Virus genome (UHGV): UHGV-0225063
Origin: a virus
Length of the DNA: 37,092 nt
Reading direction: 5' to 3' (one strand)
This document shows, piece by piece, positions 479 to 22,629 of this stretch (positions within the stretch are counted from its first letter, which is position 1; each line of letters starts with the position of its first letter). The position numbers and the translations under genes are program-made. The notes beneath the pieces are model-generated. The model was not told the origin of the DNA and did no database searches. It saw only the letters and a program-made list of their open reading frames with translations.

Positions 479-1158
479 CAGAGTAATACTCCCCATGCTC
501 CTACATCAAAACCACTGATGAATTCGTTATCCATATCAAAACCAAAAAATTTTGAGCCTTCCGATGGGGCTTCCACCGAAGGTGTTTCAATGCCGCCCGC
601 CCACACACCGGCGGCTTTTACTGTGAGATATCCCTGTTTAATTGCAGCAATTAACTCACGCGATACATCTGAAATATCATTATCGGGAAAGACCCAGACC
701 GATATCGTCATGTCCTGGTTATCGACTATCTGCATTCGCAGCCCGGAGCCTGCTGTTGCAGCGTCAAGAATTGCTGGAAGCGAATCATTCCGTCCGTCCC
801 AGTTATTAATCGCAATCTTCGCTTTAAGGATGACACGATAAGTTTCATCGCTGAGGTACATGTATCCGGAATCAGGATCGTATGGCCCCTGCCATACACC
901 CTGATCATATCCAAGCCCGTCGGTATCCCAGCTGAAATAGACACCTGAGATAGGCTGGCTGACAACACGGCTACGTCCGATCCACAATCCCAGAATGTCA
1001 AGTTGCACACCAACCGCAGAGTCAATATCAAATGCAGTAATCAGCCCTCTGGTGGCCGCCGCAACATCAATAAGCGGCCGGGTCATCAGATCAACATGTG
1101 CAAGAAATTTAGGTTTGGTGGCGTGGTAGTTCGTGATTAGTTCGGTGTATTTGCTCAT
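478..1158 (-). CDS. Baseplate/tail protein (Mu gp48 / P2 gpI-like position)
   Basis: 226-aa ORF translationally coupled between the J-like gene and the tail fibre; position in a V-W-J-I-fibre series. Confidence 0.5.
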
Positions 1159-2354
1159 GACTCCACCGTTATAACGATATTTTCCGGGGTACAGGACGCA
1201 GATTCGTTGTATCTGATATCAATGTTTGATGACGACAAAGCCCCCGGGGATTTCCCAATCGTCAGTTCCTGAATATCGTAATAGCGTGCATTCCCGCCAC
1301 TCACCACGCCAAGATTTGCCGGTGAGTAAATGCGACTTAAAAGGACCGAATCACCGATCGTCAGACTATTGATATAGTCGGAAATAGCCTGCTGGATCTG
1401 CTGCCCTATCTGTGAGGTATAACCCGTAAAAACTTTTAATTTAATCCGGGCATAAACAGGCACATCACTGGAACGCGAGAATTTGATTACATGGGGATTG
1501 CCGTATTTATCCGGAACCGTAACGGATGTTGTACCGTGAGTGGCTGTCCCCTGGCCTTTATTCCCTCTGATAGCCTGAGCAATATCCGTCACATCACCGC
1601 CATCCACAATTACAGCAACAGAGTGTGGCGGTAACCCGTTGCCGTCCTCCGAACCAGTATCGTTTTCATAGAGTTTGTGGCGGGTTACACCGGTAACATT
1701 AGAAACAGCACCATCCAGTGCTTCAAATGGGGTTATTGATGGCAACGCAACACTTTGCGACTGGCGGATACGTAACTCAGCGTCAGTTTCTGCCGGAGTG
1801 CCCACAGTAGCCGCAGCAGGATTGGTTACCGAAACCCAGCCACGGGTTGGCGTATTAATTTCAGTGATAGTTCCAGCCTGCGCCGCCACTGCACCACTGA
1901 CGGAACATGTTGCGGTCACCATCACTGTACCATCCACGCCGACCACCACTGAAGCAGGCAAACGCCATATCACATTATTACTGTCTTTCACGCTGCCATT
2001 AATGATGGTTGTTCCGGTAGTTCCTGTAAGAAGCAAATCAACCGTAGAATTCGTCGCGCCTTTACGTGAAATACCATTTATTTTCACGTTACTGGTCAGT
2101 GCAGCCCCATAGCCGGTTGCCGGTGAAAAACAGTTGTAGACAGTTATCGCAGTATTATTGGCATCATGAATCGCCAGCGCCATCAGAGCCACCATCTGGC
2201 CGTCTTTGCTGTCCGGTTCGAGGTAGGCATCACTGCCATAAATCTGCTGAAAATAGCTAATCAGGGTGCTGAGTATCGTCTGATAATCAGGCGCACTGAT
2301 CCCCTCCGCGGTTACCTTTGCAGATAAACCGAGAGAATCAAGGTTCAGAGCCAT
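1155..2354 (-). CDS. Baseplate J-like protein
   Basis: 399-aa ORF; size and position (after the W-like gene, before the I-like gene) fit Mu gp47 / P2 gpJ. Confidence 0.6.
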   Translation of the reverse strand: MALNLDSLGLSAKVTAEGISAPDYQTILSTLISYFQQIYGSDAYLEPDSKDGQMVALMALAIHDANNTAITVYNCFSPATGYGAALTSNVKINGISRKGATNSTVDLLLTGTTGTTIINGSVKDSNNVIWRLPASVVVGVDGTVMVTATCSVSGAVAAQAGTITEINTPTRGWVSVTNPAAATVGTPAETDAELRIRQSQSVALPSITPFEALDGAVSNVTGVTRHKLYENDTGSEDGNGLPPHSVAVIVDGGDVTDIAQAIRGNKGQGTATHGTTSVTVPDKYGNPHVIKFSRSSDVPVYARIKLKVFTGYTSQIGQQIQQAISDYINSLTIGDSVLLSRIYSPANLGVVSGGNARYYDIQELTIGKSPGALSSSNIDIRYNESASCTPENIVITVES

Positions 2355-2707
2355 TACGCCTCCGATGTAACAGTCGTTATTCCATAAAGAGTGTCGATTT
2401 CAGCGGAAAACATGACACGTCGGGTCGTGGTATCCAGCGTCGTATTGAAAGAGAGGATTGATTTAACGCCCTGCGTTTCGAGGATGCGCTTACGGATCGC
2501 CAGGTTGTAGGTTTCCGGCTTCTGCTTACCGAGTACGGACTGGATCCACGGAGTCCCCTCGGTGGTGTCGAGAAACCATTGCCCATACCACAATTCGAAT
2601 CGCGTTTTTACCGCCTGCGCCACGGCCTCCGGTGAGTTAATCAGCCAGGTGTCATCACCGCTGCCAAAGGTGTAATCGCCATCGGCGTCTTCACGTCTGT
2701 ATCGCAT
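2354..2707 (-). CDS. Small baseplate protein (gpW/gp25-like position)
   Basis: 117-aa ORF tightly coupled between the V-like and J-like genes. Confidence 0.45.
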   Translation of the reverse strand: MRYRREDADGDYTFGSGDDTWLINSPEAVAQAVKTRFELWYGQWFLDTTEGTPWIQSVLGKQKPETYNLAIRKRILETQGVKSILSFNTTLDTTTRRVMFSAEIDTLYGITTVTSEA

Positions 2708-3459
2708 CAGTTTACCCCATCGGTATTGCTTCCACCGCGCTGAACACCGCCATGAGTGTGCGTATCATCGATTGGCTTGCCGTTAGCCTTAACGCTCCCC
2801 AAGAACTCAACAGCACCAGTGATTTTTGAAGCCACACCAGAAGCAACAGACCCCACCATGCCACCCATCCAGGTTAACAGGCCATGAATGGTTACTTTCT
2901 CAGAAAAATCAGCCAGAGGGGCAACCACATCAAGACCACCCGGAGCGACAATTTTAATTTTCCGGGTATCAGGATTAAGCTCAAAATAGGTGCTGCCGTC
3001 GTCACTACGCAACTGTGTGGCACTGGTATTAATACCGCTAATCTTCCTAGCCTGCGACTGGGGACCGACAATACAAAACGCATCCGATAAATCATGCATT
3101 CTGTCATCGACCGGCTCCTGTATCCCGCCACTCTGCCACCAGAAATCAATACAACGATCGGCAAAAACGACAAGACACTCATCCCCGGCTTTTACCGGAA
3201 AAGTCAACGTACAGCCTCCGCCGCGCGGGAATACCACTGGTACATCCACCAGCAGGGGTAATGTCGTCGACTGGTTGATTCCATTTGAGTCCGGCTCATA
3301 GCCTTTAATCGCTGGTTGAACAACTACCGTTACCGTGTCCTGATCAAATGACTGGACGATACCGGGCATAGAAACACGCAGCGCCGACATGACAGAACCA
3401 GCAAGTCTTACATCGGCCTGTTCTTTACTGCCGAGTTGAGAGGAAAGTGAAACTGGCAT
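2707..3459 (-). CDS. Baseplate spike / assembly protein V-like
   Basis: ORF 2707..3474; the start is more likely the second ATG (MPVSLSS...), which has a GGAG Shine-Dalgarno. His-rich C-terminal motif (DDTHTHGG) and position resemble gpV-type spikes. Confidence 0.55.
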   Translation of the reverse strand: MPVSLSSQLGSKEQADVRLAGSVMSALRVSMPGIVQSFDQDTVTVVVQPAIKGYEPDSNGINQSTTLPLLVDVPVVFPRGGGCTLTFPVKAGDECLVVFADRCIDFWWQSGGIQEPVDDRMHDLSDAFCIVGPQSQARKISGINTSATQLRSDDGSTYFELNPDTRKIKIVAPGGLDVVAPLADFSEKVTIHGLLTWMGGMVGSVASGVASKITGAVEFLGSVKANGKPIDDTHTHGGVQRGGSNTDGVN

Positions 3460-3474
3460 ATTTTCTCCAGACAT

Positions 3475-3500
3475 AAAAAACCCGCTCGACGGCGGGTTAT
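3475..3500 (-). terminator. Intrinsic terminator downstream of doc
   Basis: On the minus strand: AACCCGC-cgtcga-GCGGGTT stem-loop followed by TTTTTT. Confidence 0.55.
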
Positions 3501-3530
3501 ATACATTTTACGTTTACCGTTGATACGCTA

Positions 3531-3938
3531 TCAGTATCCAGTAATCGTGTCTGCCAGCAGCTCATTCTTATAATCTGACAAGAGTTTTAGTGCCAGTGCA
3601 GTATTATCACAATCAGCTTCTCCAGTAGCAGCAAAGATAGTCAACTTCACCAACTCCATGGAGGTGTTAAGTTCATAGCCATTCATTAGCAAGAAAATGC
3701 TGGTGGCCTGGAAAGCTGTTCGCTTGTTGGCATCGTTAAAAGCGTGAGACTTCGCTATTGCTACCATATACATAGCGGCAAATTTAAATAAATCCTCACA
3801 GCCTTCATATATGTGCAGATTATGCACCCTGTTCAGGGCACCTTCGAGCTTACCTATATCAGGCTGCCCGCTGTTCGGCAGCGTACTTTTCTGAATCGCA
3901 ATAACCTCATCAACCGAAAGAAACGTAATCTCAGCCAT
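3531..3938 (-). CDS. doc: Doc toxin (Fic-fold kinase family)
   Basis: 135 aa; motif HAFNDANKRTA matches the Doc signature (P1 Doc has HIFNDANKRTA, from memory). Start codon overlaps the stop of the upstream antitoxin. Confidence 0.85.
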   Translation of the reverse strand: MAEITFLSVDEVIAIQKSTLPNSGQPDIGKLEGALNRVHNLHIYEGCEDLFKFAAMYMVAIAKSHAFNDANKRTAFQATSIFLLMNGYELNTSMELVKLTIFAATGEADCDNTALALKLLSDYKNELLADTITGY

Positions 3939-4351
3939 TATTTATCTTCCAGTTTTTTTATAATTTCCGCATGCTTAGTCTGAGTATGTTGCAAAGCTTT
4001 AATAAATGACTCTGATACGCCCTGCAGGGCAAGTGCAGCATTGGCAGCCTTCATCATTGCCTGGCGCGCCTCATCAGACTGCAGAAGGACATCTAATTGC
4101 TTAGTAAACTTCATGACTCCCTCCGTTACCTGTGGGGATAAATTAGATGAAATTAACTGTGCAAGATGCGCATCTATCGTTTTGTTTTGTGGCTTAATTT
4201 CTTTTCCAGACACCACCTTATCAACGGTTTTTGCACTGATAACAGTATCAGGCTTCCCCCGTTGCGTTACCGTTACACTCTCACCTGAGCGTAACAATTC
4301 CAGCGTGGCAGATAAATCCGAACGCATTTGTGTATAAGTAATGGTTTTCAT
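3938..4351 (-). CDS. phd: Phd/YefM-like antitoxin with an extended C-terminal region
   Basis: N-terminus MKTITYTQMRSDLSATLELLRSGESVTVTQRGKPDTVISAK resembles Phd/YefM. Start taken at MKT (4351), which has a GAGGG Shine-Dalgarno, rather than the ORF-track start at 4369. About 137 aa, longer than the ~73-aa P1 Phd. Confidence 0.7.
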   Translation of the reverse strand: MKTITYTQMRSDLSATLELLRSGESVTVTQRGKPDTVISAKTVDKVVSGKEIKPQNKTIDAHLAQLISSNLSPQVTEGVMKFTKQLDVLLQSDEARQAMMKAANAALALQGVSESFIKALQHTQTKHAEIIKKLEDK

Positions 4352-4360
4352 AGCACCCTC

Positions 4361-4376
4361 TCTGTACATGTACAGA
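4361..4376 (-). promoter_or_regulatory. Perfect 16-bp palindrome TCTGTACATGTACAGA just upstream of the antitoxin start; candidate autoregulatory operator
   Basis: Exact inverted repeat read from the sequence, about 10 nt upstream of the antitoxin start codon. Confidence 0.4.
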
Positions 4377-4431
4377 TTAGCGCATATTCAAGATGAGAGA
4401 GCAATGATTAATACAGTTGTGTTGGTAAAGA

Positions 4432-4773
4432 TCACTTCACCTTCCGGCAATCATACGTCCAGAACTCCCGAGGGTCGTCCATATTTTTACGGATAACTTC
4501 AACGTTGAGTATGGGTTTTTTATTACGAATAATGTAGTCCATACCTAACCAGTGCCCATCACCGGGAACCATCAGTTGGATCATGAAGTTGTCATAATCT
4601 TCTTTCGCTTTCAGGAAGGTAAGTTTCTGCGTTTCAGGTTCCCGGCCATTTACCATGGTCAACCCTTCGGCATTAGCCTTAAGGTAAAACGGCCCACACT
4701 GAACTGCTGTCCAGCCTGTTAACGGAATGACTGTAAAGATAGTGACCAGCCCAAAAACATTTAAGAGCTTCAT
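4432..4773 (-). CDS. Small exported protein (N-terminal signal peptide), unknown function
   Basis: 113 aa; N-terminus MKLLNVFGLVTIFTVIPLTGWTA looks like a signal peptide. Start overlaps the stop of the upstream hub-like gene by 4 nt. Confidence 0.5.
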   Translation of the reverse strand: MKLLNVFGLVTIFTVIPLTGWTAVQCGPFYLKANAEGLTMVNGREPETQKLTFLKAKEDYDNFMIQLMVPGDGHWLGMDYIIRNKKPILNVEVIRKNMDDPREFWTYDCRKVK

Positions 4774-5801
4774 CCTAAATATCCCTTGTCAATTGTAGCT
4801 TTGCTTAGAATTTCTTTGCCACCTTTAGCCAGGCAAAGCAGGTCCATATACCACGCCTGCCCTCGGGTGTCGCCAGTATAATCAATGCTGCCCACAATGT
4901 AATCACCGTCAGTATTAATGCTGGCAGGCTGTGACATGCCTGGCAGACCGTTAACGTAGAGATTACCGTCGCTTTCAGACTCATCCAGTCGTGCTGGCGA
5001 TTTCGCTACCTGGTCATTACTCAAAGAGGCACGGTATACAGATGCCTGATCCAGACGAATAAGCCCACCGAGCTTAATATTTGGATTAATCAGACATCTG
5101 ACATTTACGCCAGCTCCCATCGTCTGCTGTGGCATACCGATAAGCCCGGTGTTAGCATTCAACACCGTAGCAACACCAATATATTTATCTTCAGGAACAA
5201 TATTTACCAGATTATTTTCATACCACCAGTTAGCCTTACACTGCCCTGCGATATGATTCATCAACCTTGATGTGTTTTGATAAACAACACGACCCCGGGG
5301 AAATACCGTTTCAGGCATGTCAGGAACTGCGCCGGATTCGATGCCATATGGTTCGAATGATTTCATACCCAGACTGAAAAGATCGCTGTACTTCCAGCCA
5401 GCAGCCACTGTGGTTTTCACACTTGCGTTCAGGTGACCTTCCCAGCTGTCAATACACTGCAACATGATCCAACTGTCTGTGGCATTATCTTTACCAGTGA
5501 CAGTAAAACGGATATCTCCATTGAATATCATGCCAACGTTTTCATCAGGATAATTACCTGCTGCATCCGGTTGCCCCTTGTATCCGGCAATAACCTGTAT
5601 ACGCGAAAACTCCTTCTGCATAATCCGGTTCTGAGTGGTAGGAGACAGGTTATAAACCTTAAAATTCCCAACGAATCCATTAAATATGGTCGCAGGCATT
5701 TTCTGAATATTGAAAGTGACTTTAAGCTCAGAAATTTTTATCCCGTCGCCCTTATCATCAACAAGCAATAATTCAAAGTGACGCATCCAGTTTTTCGACA
5801 T
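4770..5801 (-). CDS. Baseplate hub-like tail protein
   Basis: 343-aa ORF between the tape-measure-proximal genes and the V-like spike; assigned by position only. Confidence 0.45.
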   Translation of the reverse strand: MSKNWMRHFELLLVDDKGDGIKISELKVTFNIQKMPATIFNGFVGNFKVYNLSPTTQNRIMQKEFSRIQVIAGYKGQPDAAGNYPDENVGMIFNGDIRFTVTGKDNATDSWIMLQCIDSWEGHLNASVKTTVAAGWKYSDLFSLGMKSFEPYGIESGAVPDMPETVFPRGRVVYQNTSRLMNHIAGQCKANWWYENNLVNIVPEDKYIGVATVLNANTGLIGMPQQTMGAGVNVRCLINPNIKLGGLIRLDQASVYRASLSNDQVAKSPARLDESESDGNLYVNGLPGMSQPASINTDGDYIVGSIDYTGDTRGQAWYMDLLCLAKGGKEILSKATIDKGYLG

Positions 5802-5803
5802 TG

Positions 5804-6106
5804 TTACTCCGTGAAAACATAGAGGTGTGAGAGCGTTCCAAGATCGAATTGCGTCGGGTTTTCCTGCCCTGCCACGTCGCAGAGTACCACCAGCGAAAAC
5901 CCGAGATTCATATATCGATACTGCGCCAACAGGTCAGCCCCCGTAATCATCGGAATGCCTGAGATAATGGCGGAACCATTGCTGTCAGCAAGATCCAGAA
6001 CCCAGTACTCTCCGCGCCAGATGACAGACAGTTGATAAACCGTACCGTTAATTGTGGTGGCAAAAGTCTGATTATCAGCCACCAGTGGGATTTCTACGGC
6101 CTCCAT
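5804..6106 (-). CDS. Small tail/baseplate protein
   Basis: 100-aa ORF tightly packed in the tail operon. Confidence 0.4.
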   Translation of the reverse strand: MEAVEIPLVADNQTFATTINGTVYQLSVIWRGEYWVLDLADSNGSAIISGIPMITGADLLAQYRYMNLGFSLVVLCDVAGQENPTQFDLGTLSHLYVFTE

Positions 6107-6109
6107 GAA

Positions 6110-6760
6110 TCACCTTCCCAGAAATAAATTGCTCAGATACCCATCAACAGTGGAGATACCTTCTTGCGCCATCTGTGGCAGCGATTTCAGAATGGAATTA
6201 TTCGGCGGCACCGTTGTTTTGGTGCCTGTATTCTGCACAGCAGACGTTCCGCCCCCCTCGGTCATATTGTTTTTCGAGGCAACCCTGATTGACTGCGTGG
6301 AGGTAATAATCACCTCCCTGAGGGTAAGGGTCGCCAGAAGCACATTCTCACTACTCTTGTCAGTCGTCACCTCCAGCGTTTTTATCAACATATTGTTGTA
6401 AATACGCTTGCCGGTTGTCACATCGAAAGGAATACGATCCCGCTGCAGATTAAGCAACTCCTGATACAGTTCTTTCGGGCTCAGACCCAGTAAACTGGTA
6501 GCCGTCAGGTTACTGGCAAAATCAAGCAGCGATCCGCCTCCGGAAAAACCGGTTTCCATCACAACCTCAGAAGGCCGCCTGAATGCGTGTTCTGATATAT
6601 AACCAGCGCCCTCACCACTGGCACCAGCATTCGTGGGCTGTTCAACCGGATGTTCCGTAATTTCCAGGGCGTCAGTGTGCTTTTCGGTAATAACCACATC
6701 AGGAATAATGATTCCTATTGAGCGGGTTCGCTGCTGCAGTAAAACAGATAAAAAGTCCAT
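6110..6760 (-). CDS. Tail protein immediately downstream of the tape measure gene
   Basis: 216-aa ORF directly abutting the tape-measure stop. Confidence 0.45.
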   Translation of the reverse strand: MDFLSVLLQQRTRSIGIIIPDVVITEKHTDALEITEHPVEQPTNAGASGEGAGYISEHAFRRPSEVVMETGFSGGGSLLDFASNLTATSLLGLSPKELYQELLNLQRDRIPFDVTTGKRIYNNMLIKTLEVTTDKSSENVLLATLTLREVIITSTQSIRVASKNNMTEGGGTSAVQNTGTKTTVPPNNSILKSLPQMAQEGISTVDGYLSNLFLGR

Positions 6761-8733
6761 TACGCAGGTCCTTTCAATTGCTGTACCGCCCTGGCATTTA
6801 CAGCCCCCTGCTTGTCAGCGATCAGATTAGCCGCCTCCTGAGGGTTGTTAACTCCATGAACATTTATAACAGTCTGCTGGTTAAGGCTGCCAGCGGCGGC
6901 CTGATACGCCAGCGGGCTGTTCCAGTTTGAATAACCTTCTTTGCGCGCCATCGACTGCATCAATGCTCCCATAGTCTGGGGATCTGTAAGATTCAATATT
7001 GCATTCGGTGATACTCCCATCCATTTCGCAACATCCTGTGCATACTTTTTCGGATCGTTGTTATCACCTGCCGGGGCCCAGGTACTGACAATATCCTGAA
7101 TAGTCTGTAATGCCCGTCCGGTTGTTTTCCCGGTAAAGTAACGCATGAGCTGGTTTTTCATCGCCTCCCAGCCCTCAAGAGCTGATTCGAAAAACCGGAA
7201 CCCTTTACCGCTCACCGGGCGAATGTTCCCTGGATTGTTATTCCGATCGGCTAAAGTACGCTTCGTAGCCTGTGCATATTGTTCCGGCTCAGCACCTGGA
7301 ATATCTGACTGAATATTTGCGCCTTTTACGGTATGAGGATTACGACCAAAATCGGTATCAATGCCAAGCCAGCGCAATGAATCTCCAATATTTTGTTTCG
7401 TGTAATCCCAGGATGACTTCGCACTGGCACCAATATTTTCGCGATCAGAGTACAAATACGCCGCATAAGCCATCCAGCCTTTTAACCACGGCGGGACCGG
7501 TATCCCTGCAAGTCGTGAAAATGCTCCTGTGACCTTGCTAATCCATACTCCGGCGATAAAAGTCGCCAGCAACTCCAGTGCATTTTGCCAGCCGCCAACA
7601 CCATCTTTTAGTTCCAGAAGGTGATCACGAAGCCAGGTGATCGCATCCTTCGCTTTATCTATTGCCGGTTGCCATTTTTCCCAGTCGATAAGACTGTTAC
7701 CGCCTTCTTTCCATGTTTTGTAGTCTTCCCACAAGAGACCGAGAGCCACGATCAGACCGGTAATCAGCCCTATAGGTGACATCCAGAAAGTAGAGTTAAG
7801 TATCCGCATGGCGACAACCAGACCGCCGATAACCTCTATCAGGGTTTTCGTTTCGGCATCCAGTTTCCCCCACCACTCGATGATATCACCGACACCATCG
7901 ACTATCCGAAATGCAACCCGCCCGACTATCTCACCCAGCCAGAGGATCCCCTTTATGACCTTTGTGATGGTGACTTCAATTTTGGGAAAATTTTCAATTA
8001 TCTTTTTGCGCAGGTTATCAATCTGCCCCGCCAGTCCGTCCGCAAGATTCGATCCGATTTTGTCCCGCGCCATCCCGGCCATTTCACCGAGCGATTTCAG
8101 CGAGGTCATAAACCGGTTTGACGATAAGGCAGCCTGATCGGCATTAAATCCGATCGCTTTCACCATTTCTGAATACTGAGCGCTGAACTGCCCCACTCCG
8201 CGACGCATAGCCATCAGGGTATTTTCGTCAATGCCCAGCATCTGCGCATACTGGTTAGCCCGGTAATACGGCATGCTGCTGAGTTTCTGTCCAACGCCCG
8301 TAAAGATAGCGGCCATGTCACGCATGTTACCGCTGGCATCACGGGTCTGTACGCCCAGGCGATTCAGAAAGCCTTCTGCACCGGGATTGTTACGAATAAA
8401 CCGGGAGAGGCTTTCCAGAGAAGATCGCGCAGCGTCCACGCTGCCGCCAACCTGCGAAACCGCATAGCCAATAGACTGAATTCCCTGGACTGTCGCGCCG
8501 GTGCGCTGTGACGCCCAGTAAAGATTATCCAGACCGGAGGCGATCTTAGCCGTAAAGGCCACCACGGACAGTGCAGCTCCTTCAACAGCCAGCCCCATTT
8601 TGATGACATTTGCAGTTGTACCGGCGAGGACAGAACCGAACTTTTTCGCTCCTGCATCATCCACACTGAAGCCAAGCGAAACGAGGAAATCTTTAATAGT
8701 TTCAGCGTTCATTATCCTCTCTCCATTTCTCAA
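6760..8733 (-). CDS. Tail tape measure protein
   Basis: 657 aa, the largest tail ORF; long helical N-terminal part, central hydrophobic segment (LIEVIGGLVVAMRIL...IGLITGLIVALGLLW), distinct C-terminal globular region; sits between the chaperone and baseplate genes. Confidence 0.75.
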   Translation of the reverse strand: MRNGERIMNAETIKDFLVSLGFSVDDAGAKKFGSVLAGTTANVIKMGLAVEGAALSVVAFTAKIASGLDNLYWASQRTGATVQGIQSIGYAVSQVGGSVDAARSSLESLSRFIRNNPGAEGFLNRLGVQTRDASGNMRDMAAIFTGVGQKLSSMPYYRANQYAQMLGIDENTLMAMRRGVGQFSAQYSEMVKAIGFNADQAALSSNRFMTSLKSLGEMAGMARDKIGSNLADGLAGQIDNLRKKIIENFPKIEVTITKVIKGILWLGEIVGRVAFRIVDGVGDIIEWWGKLDAETKTLIEVIGGLVVAMRILNSTFWMSPIGLITGLIVALGLLWEDYKTWKEGGNSLIDWEKWQPAIDKAKDAITWLRDHLLELKDGVGGWQNALELLATFIAGVWISKVTGAFSRLAGIPVPPWLKGWMAYAAYLYSDRENIGASAKSSWDYTKQNIGDSLRWLGIDTDFGRNPHTVKGANIQSDIPGAEPEQYAQATKRTLADRNNNPGNIRPVSGKGFRFFESALEGWEAMKNQLMRYFTGKTTGRALQTIQDIVSTWAPAGDNNDPKKYAQDVAKWMGVSPNAILNLTDPQTMGALMQSMARKEGYSNWNSPLAYQAAAGSLNQQTVINVHGVNNPQEAANLIADKQGAVNARAVQQLKGPA

Positions 8734-14509: not shown

Positions 14510-15730
14510 TTACCCTTTACGGTTTGCCCAGAATTCAGCGTTTTGTTTGTTCAGGGAAGCGATACTGGTCATGCCCATGTTTAGGCGCTGTGCATCGCCG
14601 GTGGTGGCGCGGGTGTTTCGCCCTTTGGCAATCTCAGACACGGCATTAAACGCCATGTCGACCGATTGTTTCGGCAATTTGCGGATATCCGCATCACCGA
14701 CGATCTGGCGAACCAGCGTTTTATCTGCAGAAGCCAGAACCTCGCGTTTGAACTCGGTCGGTTTCATCTTACGGCTCAGATCGATACCCGGAACGATAAC
14801 TTCGGCACGCCAGGCTGAGTCACCAGTAATCGTGGTTTCCTCTTCATCGTCCTCGCCGTCACCGGTCGGATTATCGTCAGGTTTATTATCGTTATCGCCC
14901 GTGGCATTTCCTTCCAGCTTAGCCAGCAGGGCTTTCAGTAATGTTTTGAGGTCATCATCACTGTCGCCGGTTGGACCTCCACCCATCTCTGGTGCTTTGT
15001 CCGGTAGTGGTTGCTGCGGGGACAGGTTGATGTTGAGATTAACGCCCTGCGGCAAATCCCCCTCATCTCCTGTAACCGATGCGGGAGCCGACTCCACCAG
15101 TTCGTTCATGGTGTCGGCATCTCCTGTCTTGATGGCTGCACGCATGCGGTTCCACCAGTTTTTCTTTTGATTTGCCATTGTGTCTCTGTCTCCAATTGCA
15201 CAACGATTTCCGGCTCTGCCTTTGGGGACAAGAGCCACATGGTTTCCGGTAATATCGACCTGCCCGGCTTTACCTGGCTCGGTCTGCTCGTACTCCGCGT
15301 CATAGCCGCACGACACTTCACGCAGGCCATCTTCGATAAGCTGAATGGCGTTTTCGTCTTTGACGATAAGGTCAGCCAGCATCAAATCAGACTGCTCACC
15401 CGTCCCGCGCCGGACATTCTGGAGGTGCCCGACAGCAAGCTCTTTCCAGTTCTCGGGATTTACCAGCCGCACATTCCCGTTTTCATCTTCAGGATGCAGG
15501 ATCGTGATGCTCATCCCTTCGAATGAGGCAAGCGTGGCCGGATGGAATACCTGCTCAGGAGAACGCGTGACGACTATTTCACCGAACTTATCGGGTTTCA
15601 GTTTTGGCAAGTCATCAGCACCATAGAGCTGCTTACCTGTTCGTCCTATCGGCACGTCTCTGCACAGCAACGAGCCGTCAGCCAGCTGATAGCGGGTTTC
15701 CCCCAGCCGGGTATTGAAAAAATATTTCAT
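14510..15730 (-). CDS. Prohead scaffold / core protein (possible protease-scaffold fusion)
   Basis: 406 aa; structured N-terminal half, then a highly acidic Gly/Asp/Glu-rich low-complexity segment (GDSDDDL...GDGEDDEEE) and a basic C-terminus, as scaffolds often have. Confidence 0.5.
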   Translation of the reverse strand: MKYFFNTRLGETRYQLADGSLLCRDVPIGRTGKQLYGADDLPKLKPDKFGEIVVTRSPEQVFHPATLASFEGMSITILHPEDENGNVRLVNPENWKELAVGHLQNVRRGTGEQSDLMLADLIVKDENAIQLIEDGLREVSCGYDAEYEQTEPGKAGQVDITGNHVALVPKGRAGNRCAIGDRDTMANQKKNWWNRMRAAIKTGDADTMNELVESAPASVTGDEGDLPQGVNLNINLSPQQPLPDKAPEMGGGPTGDSDDDLKTLLKALLAKLEGNATGDNDNKPDDNPTGDGEDDEEETTITGDSAWRAEVIVPGIDLSRKMKPTEFKREVLASADKTLVRQIVGDADIRKLPKQSVDMAFNAVSEIAKGRNTRATTGDAQRLNMGMTSIASLNKQNAEFWANRKG

Positions 15731-20138: not shown

Positions 20139-20351
20139 TCAGTCCCGAACGAACGTAACCTTCGTGTTTGTCGCTCGCCGTACAAGGCGCGCCGCTTCGC
20201 GTTGCATTTCATCGATAACTTTTGGCGTCATCGGCTGATGCGCATATTTACGTTCAATCTCTGCAAAAATCCCGTTCATCGTTTCGCTGTCTGGTGGGAT
20301 AACTTCAACGTTTAATCGTGCCATTGGTTTGTGCTGCCCTGTTTTTCTCAA
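20139..20351 (-). CDS. Hypothetical small protein between lysis and packaging genes
   Basis: 70-aa ORF, no recognisable motif; overlaps the Rz1 3' end. Confidence 0.3.
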   Translation of the reverse strand: MRKTGQHKPMARLNVEVIPPDSETMNGIFAEIERKYAHQPMTPKVIDEMQREAARLVRRATNTKVTFVRD

Positions 20352-20583
20352 AAGTCCTGATATCGGCCTTATCCCTGTTGCACTGTGCTAATGCTGACAA
20401 CAACGCAACATTCAGGTTAAGGCTGGCTCCCCACGTAAACGGGTCGGGTAAATCTGGCTGGGGTGTTTCATCCGTCAGACTGGCTGGTAACGGAACGACC
20501 GGCACCGACACGTATACCGTTCGCGTATTCGTGCAACCGCTTAACTGCGCCAGAAGGAACGATACGAACAGCACAATCATCAT
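20305..20583 (-). CDS. Outer-membrane spanin (Rz1-like lipoprotein)
   Basis: Internal Met of ORF 20305..20649 gives MMIVLFVSFLLAQLSGC with a lipobox (LSGC) and a proline-rich mature region; it starts inside Rz in another frame and extends past the Rz stop. Confidence 0.6.
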   Translation of the reverse strand: MMIVLFVSFLLAQLSGCTNTRTVYVSVPVVPLPASLTDETPQPDLPDPFTWGASLNLNVALLSALAQCNRDKADIRTFEKNRAAQTNGTIKR

Positions 20584-20860
20584 CCGCAACAGCCACTTTG
20601 ATATCTTCCTGGGTTCTCTGTGACTCCAGTGCGATCTGCTGTTTTGCATGCTGGTTAGCCTCTATAACTGTATTGATGATTTGCAGTGATTGCAGGACGT
20701 TACTGGTAATGGCTGTTGCAGATTCAGCATTTCGTACAGCCTCATCAGCACGCTCCTTTTCGTGTTGATATTTGCTGTAGTAATGCCCGGCAGACCAGAT
20801 AAAAGAACCGATGACGGTAACAAAGAAGGCAACAATAACCAGCTTATATCTCAACTTCAT
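20468..20860 (-). CDS. Inner-membrane spanin (Rz-like)
   Basis: 130 aa; N-terminal transmembrane helix (LVIVAFFVTVIGSFIW) then a coiled-coil periplasmic part; follows R with a 17-nt overlap. Not similar to lambda Rz as I recall it. Confidence 0.6.
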   Translation of the reverse strand: MKLRYKLVIVAFFVTVIGSFIWSAGHYYSKYQHEKERADEAVRNAESATAITSNVLQSLQIINTVIEANQHAKQQIALESQRTQEDIKVAVADDDCAVRIVPSGAVKRLHEYANGIRVGAGRSVTSQSDG

Positions 20861-21320
20861 TTACCACCCCACCAGCTTCTTTAAATCGGGAAATCAGGTC
20901 ACCGATTCTATGTTCATACTGACCGTAACCTGCACCAGGTAACGACGCCCAGATATTGCTGCAACGATCGATAGCCTGACGGATATCACCGCGATCAATC
21001 ATCGGTAAAGCGCCACGCTCTTTAATCTGCTGCAATGCCACTGCGTCCTGGCTTTTGGGGGAGAAGTCTTTCAATCCAAGCTGCTTACGATAGGCATCCC
21101 ACCAACGGGAAAGAAGCTGGTAACGGCCTGCAGCTGTTGATTTGAGTCTTGGGTTTAGCGTGACAAGTTTGCGAGGGTGATCTGAGTAATCAGTGAATAG
21201 CTCTCCTCCTACAATGACGTCATAACCATGATTTCTGGTTTTTTGACGTCCGTTATCAGTTCCTTCTGACCACGCCAGCATATCGAGAAACGCCTTACGT
21301 TGATTATTGATTTCCACCAT
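20844..21320 (-). CDS. R: Endolysin (lambda R-type lytic transglycosylase)
   Basis: 158 aa; [53 protein letters not shown]... is near-identical to lambda R as remembered. Confidence 0.9.
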
Positions 21321-21627
21321 CTTCTACTCCGGCTTTTTTAGCAGCGAAGCGTTTGATAAGCGAACCAATCGAGTCAGTACCGATGTAGCCGATGAACACG
21401 CTCGTTATATAAGCGAGATTGCTACTTAGTCCGGCGAAGTCGAGAAGGTCACGAATGAACCAGGCGATAATGGCACACATCGTTGCGTCGATTACTGTTT
21501 TTGTAAACGCACCGCCATTATATCTGCCGCGAAGGTACGCCATTGCAAACGCAAGGATTGCCCCGATGCCTTGTTCCTTTGCCGCGAGAATCGCGGCTAA
21601 CAGGTCATGTTTTTCTGGCATCTTCAT
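21304..21627 (-). CDS. S: Holin (lambda S-type, class I)
   Basis: 107 aa; [39 protein letters not shown]... is near-identical to lambda S, including the Met1-Lys2-Met3 dual-start motif. Confidence 0.9.
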
Positions 21628-21742
21628 GTCTTACCCCCAAAAAGGGGATTTGCTCTATTTAATGAGGAATAAGGTCGATTACTGATAGAACAAATCCAGG
21701 CTACTGTGTTTAGTAATCAGATTTGTTCGTGACCGATATGCA

Positions 21743-21782
21743 CGGGCAAAACGGCAGGAGGTTGTTACCGCGACCTCCTGCC
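21743..21782 (-). terminator. GC-rich hairpin with short U-tract (candidate terminator/attenuator) upstream of S
   Basis: Minus strand: GGCAGGAGG-tcgcggtaacaa-CCTCCTGCC followed by GTTTTG; 9-bp perfect stem. Confidence 0.3.
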
Positions 21783-21869
21783 ACCCGCTTTCACGAAGGT
21801 CATGTGTAGAAGGCCGCAGCGTAACTATCACTGATGAATTCAGGATAGCCAGTGGCTACGGCTCAGTTA

Positions 21870-21945
21870 TGGTGCTGGTTAACGGACTTGAACCGCTACC
21901 CATTCGCTTACAAGGCGACTGCTCTACCATTGGAGCTAAACCAGC
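21870..21945 (-). tRNA. tRNA, anticodon UGU by manual folding (Thr)
   Basis: 76-nt minus-strand sequence GCTGGTT...AACCAGCACCA folds as a cloverleaf: 7-bp acceptor stem, D-loop with GG, T-loop TTCAAGT, encoded CCA. The anticodon stem has one G/A mismatch, so the isotype is tentative. Confidence 0.55.
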
Positions 21946-21950
21946 ATATT

Positions 21951-22025
21951 TGGCGGGACAGCGTGGACTCGAACCACGATAAGAAGGTTAACAGCCTTCC
22001 GTAATGACCTTTATACGACTGACCC
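21951..22025 (-). tRNA. tRNA, anticodon GUU by manual folding (Asn); slightly degenerate
   Basis: 75-nt minus-strand sequence GGGTCAG...CTGTCCCGCCA; anticodon arm GAAGG-CTGTTAA-CCTTC, T-arm CGTGG-TTCGAGT-CCACG, encoded CCA; one T/T mismatch in the acceptor stem and a 3-bp D-stem. Confidence 0.45.
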
Positions 22026-22026
22026 A

Positions 22027-22072
22027 AATAAAAAAAGCCACCGTTGCAACTTAAGAGTCACTAACGGCAGCT
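22027..22072 (-). terminator. Intrinsic terminator just downstream of Q (tR'-like candidate)
   Basis: Minus strand: GCTGCCGTT-(17-nt loop)-AACGGTGGC followed by TTTTTTTATTT. A TTGACA hexamer lies immediately after the Q stop codon (pR'-like candidate). Confidence 0.4.
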
Positions 22073-22116
22073 TATGCCAATAGTGTTGCTCATTTGCTCA
22101 ATGATGTCAACACGTT

Positions 22117-22629
22117 CTATGCTACATGTTTAATTTTCTCTACACGTTTCCGATTTTTAAACGCACTATCCAGAACCGGGTAAATCATAAACAACGAGGC
22201 ATTAAGGATTTCGTCAACTTCCCGTCGACAGGTTGCGAGCGATGGTTTTTGAATGCGCCCGCCGCCACGGCATAACATCTTGCGAGGTCTTGCGACGCGA
22301 TGATAGTAAGATGCAATGGCGTGCTTGGAAGAGCCATGAGCGTAGTAGCTGAGGAGGATTCCAAAGGCTTTCTTGTCAATGTACATGACGGAATCGACGA
22401 CCTGAGAAATCAACATTCCATCATCATCATTACACATTGGCCTTGTCATAACTCTTCCCGGCTCTACGCTCTCCATGAACTTCGCTATTACGCTGCTCAT
22501 GCGCTTTTCCAGACGACCTGAATAAACCCATGCGCCCCACAGTTCAAGCCAGCCATTCAGCCACTCATGCTGTTCTTTGGTGAGGTTTAGTTCTCTTATG
22601 CCCACGCGTCTTCGCGCTGGTTTAGCCAT
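22117..22629 (-). CDS. Q: Late-gene antiterminator Q (non-lambda type)
   Basis: 170-aa ORF immediately upstream of the tRNA/lysis region; the motif ELWGAWVYSGRLEKR resembles phage antitermination-Q family proteins as remembered; differs from lambda Q. Confidence 0.65.
   Translation of the reverse strand: MAKPARRRVGIRELNLTKEQHEWLNGWLELWGAWVYSGRLEKRMSSVIAKFMESVEPGRVMTRPMCNDDDGMLISQVVDSVMYIDKKAFGILLSYYAHGSSKHAIASYYHRVARPRKMLCRGGGRIQKPSLATCRREVDEILNASLFMIYPVLDSAFKNRKRVEKIKHVA

Follow-up and report, generated by a model that had tools for sequence, protein, structure and literature searches.

The phd-doc operon of phage P1 encodes an antitoxin, Phd, of 73 amino acids (aa) and a toxin, Doc, of 126 aa (PDB 3K33, 4ZM0), and is carried by a plasmid prophage. 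Its operator contains two 8-bp palindromes 13 bp apart, and the annotated promoter has the order -10 hexamer, GTGTACAC, GAGTACAC, ribosome-binding site and ATG. The Phd protein of Salmonella Typhimurium also has 73 aa; six Doc-binding hot spots have been described in it (F56, I59, M60, H63, L67 and L70), and its residues 52-73 alone neutralise Doc (PMC9207808). TGTACA and GTAC cores are operator motifs of YefM and Phd (PMC1802561). In the YefM-YoeB and Axe-Txe operators, the TGTACA hexamer is likewise the operator core of a repressor of Phd/YefM fold, with the motifs 12 bp apart, and the toxin YoeB is an RNase. In phages P2 and P4, antiviral hotspots with conserved flanks and variable cargo, including toxin-antitoxin and defence genes, lie within the late/structural block (PMC9122126). 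The locus described here is a Phd/Doc operon in the tail gene cluster of the viral genome UHGV-0225063, of which a 37-kb stretch (37,092 nucleotides, hereafter the window) was analysed. It is very likely an intact, self-repressing cassette of ~930 bp that resides as accessory cargo in the tail operon of a lambdoid prophage, at a slot of variable gene content. All genes of the cassette region are on the minus strand, and the elements of the operon are as follows.

3531-3938, minus strand: doc, 135 aa, Doc/Fic-fold toxin
3938-4351, minus strand: Phd-type antitoxin gene, 137 aa
4361-4376, no strand: 16-bp palindrome, putative Phd operator
4377-4431, minus strand: intergenic promoter region of the cassette, as read from the sequence
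3479-3498, minus strand: hairpin followed by a T-run (T6 at 3473-3478), called terminator-like

The Doc protein matched TIGR01550 with 81.2 bits (cutoff 38.65) and Pfam Fic with 42.2 bits (cutoff 24). It was ~40% identical to P1 Doc by tblastn, and phmmer gave an E-value of 1.8e-19 to PDB 3k33_A. The catalytic motif HAFNDANKRTA, from which the initial annotation had recognised the toxin, was intact. Its core HAFNDANKR aligned with HIFNDANKR of P1 (HxFxDANKR in both), fits the Doc-type pattern HxFx(D/N)(A/G)N(K/G)R and was invariant across all seven cassette copies compared, in which Doc was 74-94% identical to the window copy. As in P1, the antitoxin gene comes first, and its stop codon and the start codon of doc share one base (TAATG), the very overlap seen in P1 phd/doc; the promoter layout and the N-terminal fold and sequence of the antitoxin are further points of likeness. 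A Fic/Doc gene followed every member of the antitoxin family that was examined (80, 128, 134, 137, 153 and 226 aa). In RefSeq (PGAP), the pair of a 98%-identical E. coli locus is named Phd/YefM family antitoxin and death-on-curing family toxin. As judged from its sequence, the locus is a Phd/Doc type II toxin-antitoxin operon with adjacent, co-oriented and translationally coupled genes. The overlap of the two genes and their placement between the baseplate hub and spike genes had been reported correctly, with the addition that a gene of 113 aa also intervenes after the hub gene. The ratio of nonsynonymous to synonymous substitution rates (dN/dS) of doc was 0.02-0.05 against copies with dS of 0.6-1.5, pointing to strong purifying selection. 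This argues that doc has been kept functional, and for no more than that.

The perfect 16-bp palindrome that the initial annotation had placed ahead of the antitoxin start was found 10-25 nt upstream of the antitoxin start codon (4361-4376). This palindrome, TCTGTACATGTACAGA, consists of two abutting TGTACA motifs with centres 6 bp apart, and is both the only perfect 16-bp palindrome of the window and its longest. Although a perfect palindromic 16-mer somewhere in 37 kb is not improbable, the probability of one in this 80-nt intergenic region is roughly 1e-3. The palindrome is therefore considered significant because of its position and conservation, and not because of its mere occurrence. TCTGTACATGTACAGA was 100% conserved in seven cassette copies in which the antitoxins were down to 50% identical and the flanking intergenic sequence had diverged, and one of these copies occupies a quite different prophage position in Serratia; in all, the element was retained in three genomic contexts. 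The 12-bp core TGTACATGTACA, which is similar to the GTAC-core operators of Phd and YefM, preceded the gene of each relative examined (80 to 226 aa), and in the 80-aa and 226-aa members its distance to the start codon is unchanged. The palindrome lies between a -10-like TAATCT (4374-4379), which it overlaps, and the ribosome-binding site; this is the same layout as in the annotated P1 promoter. It would thus very probably serve as the Phd operator. The arrangement differs from that of P1 in having one compact palindrome instead of two separate ones, and from those of YefM-YoeB and Axe-Txe in having abutting motifs and Doc as the toxin. The best candidate for a -35 hexamer is TTGCTC, separated by 19 nt from TAATCT downstream of it; since this spacing is poor, the promoter assignment is tentative. 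The positions of TTGnnn and TAATCT were kept in five further slot copies (L003, L010, L060, L061 and L062), and the Serratia copy L057 has TTGCCT and TATTCT separated by 17 nt. The second-longest perfect palindrome of the window, TGCGGATATCCGCA (14 bp), is located at 14680-14693, inside the head-gene region.

The operon is enclosed by the following genes of the tail cluster.

4770-5801, minus strand: baseplate hub gene, Pfam E217_GP41, 31.5 bits
4432-4773, minus strand: 113-aa backbone gene, the stop codon of which is the upstream edge of the cargo slot
2707-3474, minus strand: central spike gene, Pfam Gp138_N (148 bits) and Apex

The hub protein was scanned against one genome per species, which yielded 50 related loci, and the hub, the small gene, the spike and their neighbours were located in each of them. 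The slot between the 113-aa gene and the spike gene was 0-2.8 kb long, and 78 open reading frames (ORFs) of about 47 unrelated clusters were found in it in 45 loci; it is a recurrent cargo hotspot with conserved flanks. In two loci the C-terminal half of a cargo protein matched PD-Lambda-1 (E 1.4e-82). Other recognisable cargo comprised an Mrr-type nuclease, Sie-like proteins (three loci), a superinfection-immunity protein (Imm_superinfect) and a YafO toxin, as well as a P22 Ant-like antirepressor and an OB-fold (tRNA_anti-like) protein. The placement of the pair inside a structural operon, described as unusual by the initial annotation, is therefore nothing out of the ordinary for this phage group, as the slot holds dozens of unrelated accessory genes, and in four genera it is filled by diverged copies of the cassette. 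Like the hotspots of P2 and P4, the slot has conserved flanks, variable cargo including toxin-antitoxin and defence genes, and a position within the late/structural block. It differs from them in its phage background (lambdoid early genes with a SEN34-like tail), in lying between the small gene and the spike, and in a terminator that is fixed and not cargo-borne.

The limits of the cassette could be read from a sister prophage (L002), the hub and spike proteins of which are 99% identical to those of the window and which carries a different gene in the slot. The homology of the two ends precisely with the stop codon of the 113-aa gene and is restored from the 5' arm of the hairpin onwards. Accordingly, the cassette proper spans ~3499-4431 (about 930 bp); it would bring its own promoter-operator and borrow the terminator of the slot. 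The view of the cassette as a self-contained inserted unit was thus supported as far as the insertion relative to sister prophages is concerned, but not with regard to the terminator, which belongs to the backbone. As expected of a moron, the cassette is present or absent between homologous phages; it lacks a terminator of its own.

The hairpin (AACCCGC-CGTCGA-GCGGGTT) begins 32 nt after doc and is followed by T6. A hairpin of this type (AACCCGC-loop-GCGGGTT with T5-7) directly precedes the spike ribosome-binding site, with any cargo, in 45 of 48 related loci; these 48 are the loci in which both hub and spike were present, among them the E. coli loci, one Klebsiella phage and two loci to which the antitoxin had led. 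In L013 the whole slot measures 47 bp and contains little beyond the hairpin, and in L002 the hairpin is kept though the cargo is on the opposite strand. Only L030, L043 and L045 lacked it, and in these the small gene abuts the spike gene. The loops varied freely, and compensatory stem changes were seen in L019 (CCCACC/GGTGGG), L050 (CCTGC/GCAGG), L006, L020 and L048. The hairpin with U6 noted after doc is therefore present, but it is not the cassette's own. It is an element of the phage backbone, a putative intrinsic terminator by its appearance, which delimits the cargo slot on its downstream side and possibly doubles as a recombination boundary. A motif, CCTGAYATTTGATCAG, was observed next to the hairpin, on its upstream side, in L002, L015, L019, L023, L038, L047 and L051, and the cargo is on the opposite strand in L002, L015, L019, L038 and L047. 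Read on the cargo strand, CCTGAYATTTGATCAG is an imperfect inverted repeat (CTGAT...ATCAG), and it may be a promoter/operator shared by the opposite-strand class of cargo.

Copies of the cassette in the same slot were found in three E. coli genomes at ≥96% identity, and in two E. coli genomes at 82% identity, the hub and spike of the latter being only 51-53% identical to those of the window. In Serratia sp. Ag1, also in the same slot, Doc was 92-93% identical, hub 70% and spike 55%. Pantoea ananatis and Pectobacterium actinidiae carry the cassette in this slot as well. A relative of 50% identity with the same 16-bp palindrome was located between the Q and terminase genes of a different lambdoid prophage (L057-L059, Serratia; 5001-5797), where no hairpin of the backbone type directly follows doc. 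The occurrence in a different slot and in diverged backbones indicates that the cassette moves among phage accessory slots. It is rare: in a search of 5,426 complete E. coli genomes with a 1.4-kb query, five of the 43 genomes with any match carried it, and so did one of 45 species-level loci. Burkholderia phages with a Doc gene were considered as a case of the same tail position and were rejected as not comparable, as their gene lies among early/regulatory genes and has a short antitoxin.

The start codon of the antitoxin at 4351 lies six bases after a GAGGG ribosome-binding site, PGAP uses the same start in the 98%-identical E. coli locus, and Met1-Lys2 aligned with Met1 of P1 Phd and of all homologues. 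On the grounds of the ribosome-binding site, the PGAP call and the Met1 alignment, an alternative start at 4369, inside the palindrome and giving 143 aa, was rejected. The length of about 137 aa, about twice that of P1 Phd, agreed with the initial annotation. Three segments could be distinguished: a DNA-binding/dimerisation domain (residues 1-42), a variable spacer (~43-112) and a conserved C-terminal helix (113-137). Homology to Phd/YefM was found in the first of these. Pfam PhdYeFM_antitox (PF02604) matched residues 1-38 only, with 31.1 bits (cutoff 29.8), and NCBIfam phd_fam scored 19, just under its cutoff of 20.8. An hhalign comparison of the antitoxin family with P1 Phd gave a probability of 93-97% for the N-terminal part only, and the family profile searched against PDB found P1 Phd with an E-value of 6.8e-5 over residues 1-51. 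In a Foldseek search, the AlphaFold2 model matched 4zlx_A with a root-mean-square deviation of 0.8 Å over 39 residues. The N-terminal 40-50 residues are a Phd domain by sequence, profile and fold. No profile alignment with Phd extended past residue ~50.

The remainder of the antitoxin consists of two parts of contrasting conservation. When 21 relatives were aligned, the first 36 residues and the last ~23 (SESFxKALQHTQTKHAEIIKKLEDK) proved near-invariant, whereas the middle was variable, with insertions and deletions. Identity to the window copy was 69-90% in the N-terminal segment, 26-76% in the spacer and 80-96% in the last 25 residues, which track Doc in conservation. The corresponding dN/dS values were 0-0.08, 0.16-0.46 and 0.03-0.08, with dS of about 0.2-1.5 across segments and lowest in the short C-terminal one. 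Positive selection on the spacer was considered and rejected, since 0.16-0.46 is a relaxed but purifying value. Model confidence (predicted local distance difference test, pLDDT) was 92 for residues 1-40, 43-63 for 41-110, and 68, 85 and 77 for the last three blocks (111-137). An exhaustive profile search recovered 81 clusters of the antitoxin family at 50% identity, with lengths of 80-226 aa. In these, the head and the C-terminal motif (F..AL..T..KHA..IKxLEDK) were constant, and the spacer comprised about 25-165 aa, sometimes with tandem repeats. Spacers with tandem repeats were observed in P0094 (226 aa, L064) and P0074 (214 aa), an example being PNYLDDLKQAQKAM in three copies; the repeat sequences suggest that the tether may grow by repeat expansion. 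For the spacer and the C-terminal half, PDB sequence and fold searches gave matches at chance level, and the low confidence of the model makes fold matches there meaningless. The extra ~65-70 residues are therefore a fast-evolving, length-variable and probably flexible spacer and no new domain. The initial annotation had assumed an extra C-terminal domain; instead, the extra ~65 aa are central, poorly conserved, variable in length and modelled at low confidence, and the true C-terminus is a short near-invariant helix. Antitoxins of Phd fold and of such length are not unprecedented, as shown by the 139-residue Phd-fold antitoxin of PDB 3k6q.

The conserved positions of the C-terminal helix are F116, A119, L120, T123, H127 and I130; in the alignment of 21 relatives L120 was near-invariant and the others were invariant. 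Their spacing (i, +3, +4, +7, +11, +14) equals that of the six hot spots of Salmonella Phd, and at the two 'gatekeeper' positions the window helix has F and an aliphatic residue, as does Salmonella Phd. The two proteins differ in that Salmonella Phd has no spacer, and the residues are different at four of the six hot-spot positions. Because of this match in spacing, the antitoxin is read as a head, a variable tether and a Doc-binding helix, in which, by position, conservation and residue spacing, helix 113-137 probably neutralises Doc. In Salmonella, too, a short C-terminal helix acts against Doc, as is putatively the case here. Compared with P1 Phd, the window antitoxin has an additional spacer of ~70 aa and a C-terminal helix that could not be aligned by profile with Phd 52-73.

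The surrounding genes place the cassette among further tail genes. They are transcribed in the order tape measure, Dit-like protein, plug, hub, 113-aa gene, antitoxin, doc, spike, 117-aa gene and baseplate J; the genes beyond those listed above, together with the late regulator, are as follows.

6760-8733, minus strand: tape measure gene
6110-6760, minus strand: Dit-like baseplate protein gene
5804-6106, minus strand: Pam3 gp18-like plug gene
2354-2707, minus strand: 117-aa gene, no Pfam match in the window, Pantoea and Pectobacterium homologues matching Pfam Sheath_initiator
1155-2354, minus strand: baseplate J protein gene, from the Pfam scan
22117-22629, minus strand: Q-family late antiterminator gene, Pfam Phage_antitermQ, 87.2 bits

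Homologues of the hub are annotated as baseplate hub in Salmonella phage SEN34. The start of the 113-aa gene overlaps the hub stop codon, and its product is hydrophobic over an N-terminal stretch (MKLLNVFGLVTIFTVIPLTGW) and carries a conserved YDCxKVK motif in its C-terminal part. Homologues of 26-99% identity were found in most related loci, and no family match was obtained in Pfam, NCBIfam or PADLOC. The likely start of the spike gene is the second ATG, at 3462 (MPVSL), which has GGAG ahead of it; PGAP takes a start giving 250 aa. The Q gene lies upstream of the cassette and is co-oriented with it, and its counterpart in the prophage of E. coli Br_190 is annotated as an antiterminator Q family protein. 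That prophage is integrated beside bioA-ybhB, and its annotation shows a lambdoid layout with CI/Cro/CII, Q, lysis, head and tail genes. At 20305-22629 (minus strand), late-control and lysis genes of lambdoid type form a block with the Q antiterminator, holin, endolysin and lysis/spanin-like ORFs; the lambda-family holin homologue is at 21304-21627 and the family-104 endolysin homologue at 20844-21320. Given this lysis/Q block together with the tail genes, the window covers the greater part of a lambdoid prophage whose contractile tail is SEN34-like. No close DNA match to the window was found among sequenced phages. A search of 3000-5200 against Rfam gave no RNA family, and a sub-threshold Trp-leader match merely mirrors the terminator. 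Two records labelled Flavobacteriia were noticed among the relatives: H57 (OM284015, 'Elizabethkingia phage EKP1'), with a hub of 75% identity, and L033 ('Chryseobacterium sp. 18061'), with a hub of 48% identity. The spike and a neighbouring gene of L033 are 83-89% identical to those of the enterobacterial prophage of the window. The host labels of both records look doubtful, with contamination or mis-assignment as possible explanations.

The observed gene identities, conservation patterns and slot architecture suggest how the cassette might work, with activities, DNA binding, termination and role to be understood as inferred. By homology with P1 and Salmonella Phd/Doc, Doc would be a Fic-fold kinase that phosphorylates EF-Tu and halts translation. 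The antitoxin would dimerise, bind the TGTACATGTACA palindrome over the -10 region via its N-terminal Phd domain and thereby repress the operon, and its amphipathic C-terminal helix (~113-137) would block Doc. In the lysogen, the cassette would be transcribed from its own weak promoter, with transcription stopping at the backbone hairpin terminator. During lytic growth, by analogy with lambda Q, antiterminated late transcription would pass through the cassette and the terminator; this could happen because the prophage encodes an upstream, co-oriented Q. The molecular mechanism can, by analogy, be transferred from P1 and Salmonella with good confidence.

Several findings weigh against parts of this interpretation. 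The RNA fold of the terminator region was no more stable than that of shuffled sequence (z = -1.06), as is expected of a short hairpin. A consensus promoter scan called nothing at 4377-4431, where the best -35/-10 pair has a 19-nt spacer. The TGTACA motifs are spaced by 6 bp as against 12 bp for YefM and 13 bp for P1 Phd, and binding stoichiometry may therefore differ. With both long and short members of the family, hhalign gave no alignment between the C-terminal helix and the helix by which P1 Phd binds Doc. Most of the slot cargo belongs to phage families without known function, so that the defence flavour of the slot comes from a minority of its genes. Neither protein matched an established defence system in PADLOC, Doc giving only a weak match to PDC-M59B.

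With regard to its role, the cassette most likely benefits its prophage when antitoxin synthesis fails, either by abortive infection or by killing of prophage-free cells. As sister phages have genes for defence and exclusion at this slot, there is a slight lean towards exclusion of competitors. Shut-off of host synthesis by a superinfecting phage would deplete the labile antitoxin, and free Doc would then block translation and so protect clonal lysogens. This explanation is put forward tentatively. It is consistent with the PD-Lambda-1-like, Mrr-type, Sie-like, superinfection-immunity and YafO genes in the slots of sister phages, with the match of Doc to the candidate defence system PDC-M59B (PADLOC, E 4.8e-6) and with a putative promoter region of the cassette's own, which is compatible with expression in the lysogen. 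Cargo of no known function predominates in the slot, however, and literature searches found no report of Phd/Doc as a defence system. Addiction as in P1, in which cells that lose the prophage or part of it are killed or arrested and no anti-phage role exists, is somewhat doubtful. The operon is directly homologous to the addiction operon of P1 and shares its gene order, overlap and arrangement of the operator; it has been kept functional under strong purifying selection and was found only in prophage contexts among the loci examined. On the other hand, the Br_190 prophage is chromosomally integrated (bioA-ybhB), so that loss by mis-segregation does not apply, the rarity of the cassette shows that it is dispensable for prophage maintenance, and elsewhere the slot holds exclusion and defence genes.

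A selfish passenger, which resists loss and spreads by recombination from one phage accessory slot to another without benefit to phage or host, would account for near-identical Doc proteins (92-94%) in backbones with hub and spike only 51-70% identical. It would also account for the related copy in the Q-terminase slot of another lambdoid prophage, which indicates movement independent of the backbone. This possibility is rather unlikely; long-term retention in the same slot in four genera fits a benefit equally well, and by sequence such a passenger looks the same as the other explanations. The version of the initial annotation, a self-contained unit with its own terminator and an antitoxin with an additional functional C-terminal domain, would be in accordance with the hairpin after doc and with the length of the antitoxin. 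It is highly improbable, given that the hairpin occurs irrespective of cargo and that the extra residues, located centrally, vary in length and sequence, were modelled at low confidence and lack a family match. In an improbable variant of abortive infection, the spacer may be a sensor that is bound or cleaved by a component of the invading phage, which would free Doc, and Phd/Doc would then be a triggered system in a purpose-built dock with a fixed terminator, situated in the tail operon of SEN34-like or lambdoid prophages.

The Phd/Doc pair itself is ordinary, and both proteins are already correctly named in RefSeq. Literature searches revealed nothing specific on this protein pair, on Phd/Doc as phage defence or on this hotspot, and the variable tether, the distinct C-terminal motif, the abutting TGTACA operator and the fixed-terminator slot did not turn up in them. 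The traits of the subfamily and the slot are variations on known themes, namely modular Phd antitoxins, morons and prophage hotspots such as those of P2 and P4 (PMC9122126). As a toxin-antitoxin system the pair adds little, and for its mechanism P1 and Salmonella can serve as models. The Doc-partnered Phd subfamily, with its constant head and helix and a spacer of 25-165 aa, represents a natural experiment on the length of tether that is tolerated. Its very compact putative operator TGTACATGTACA, conserved across the subfamily, could be used for the study of operator spacing and cooperativity. In a widespread group of enterobacterial prophages, a slot with a fixed terminator has been mapped, and its ~47 mostly uncharacterised cargo families may serve as a hunting ground for exclusion and defence genes.

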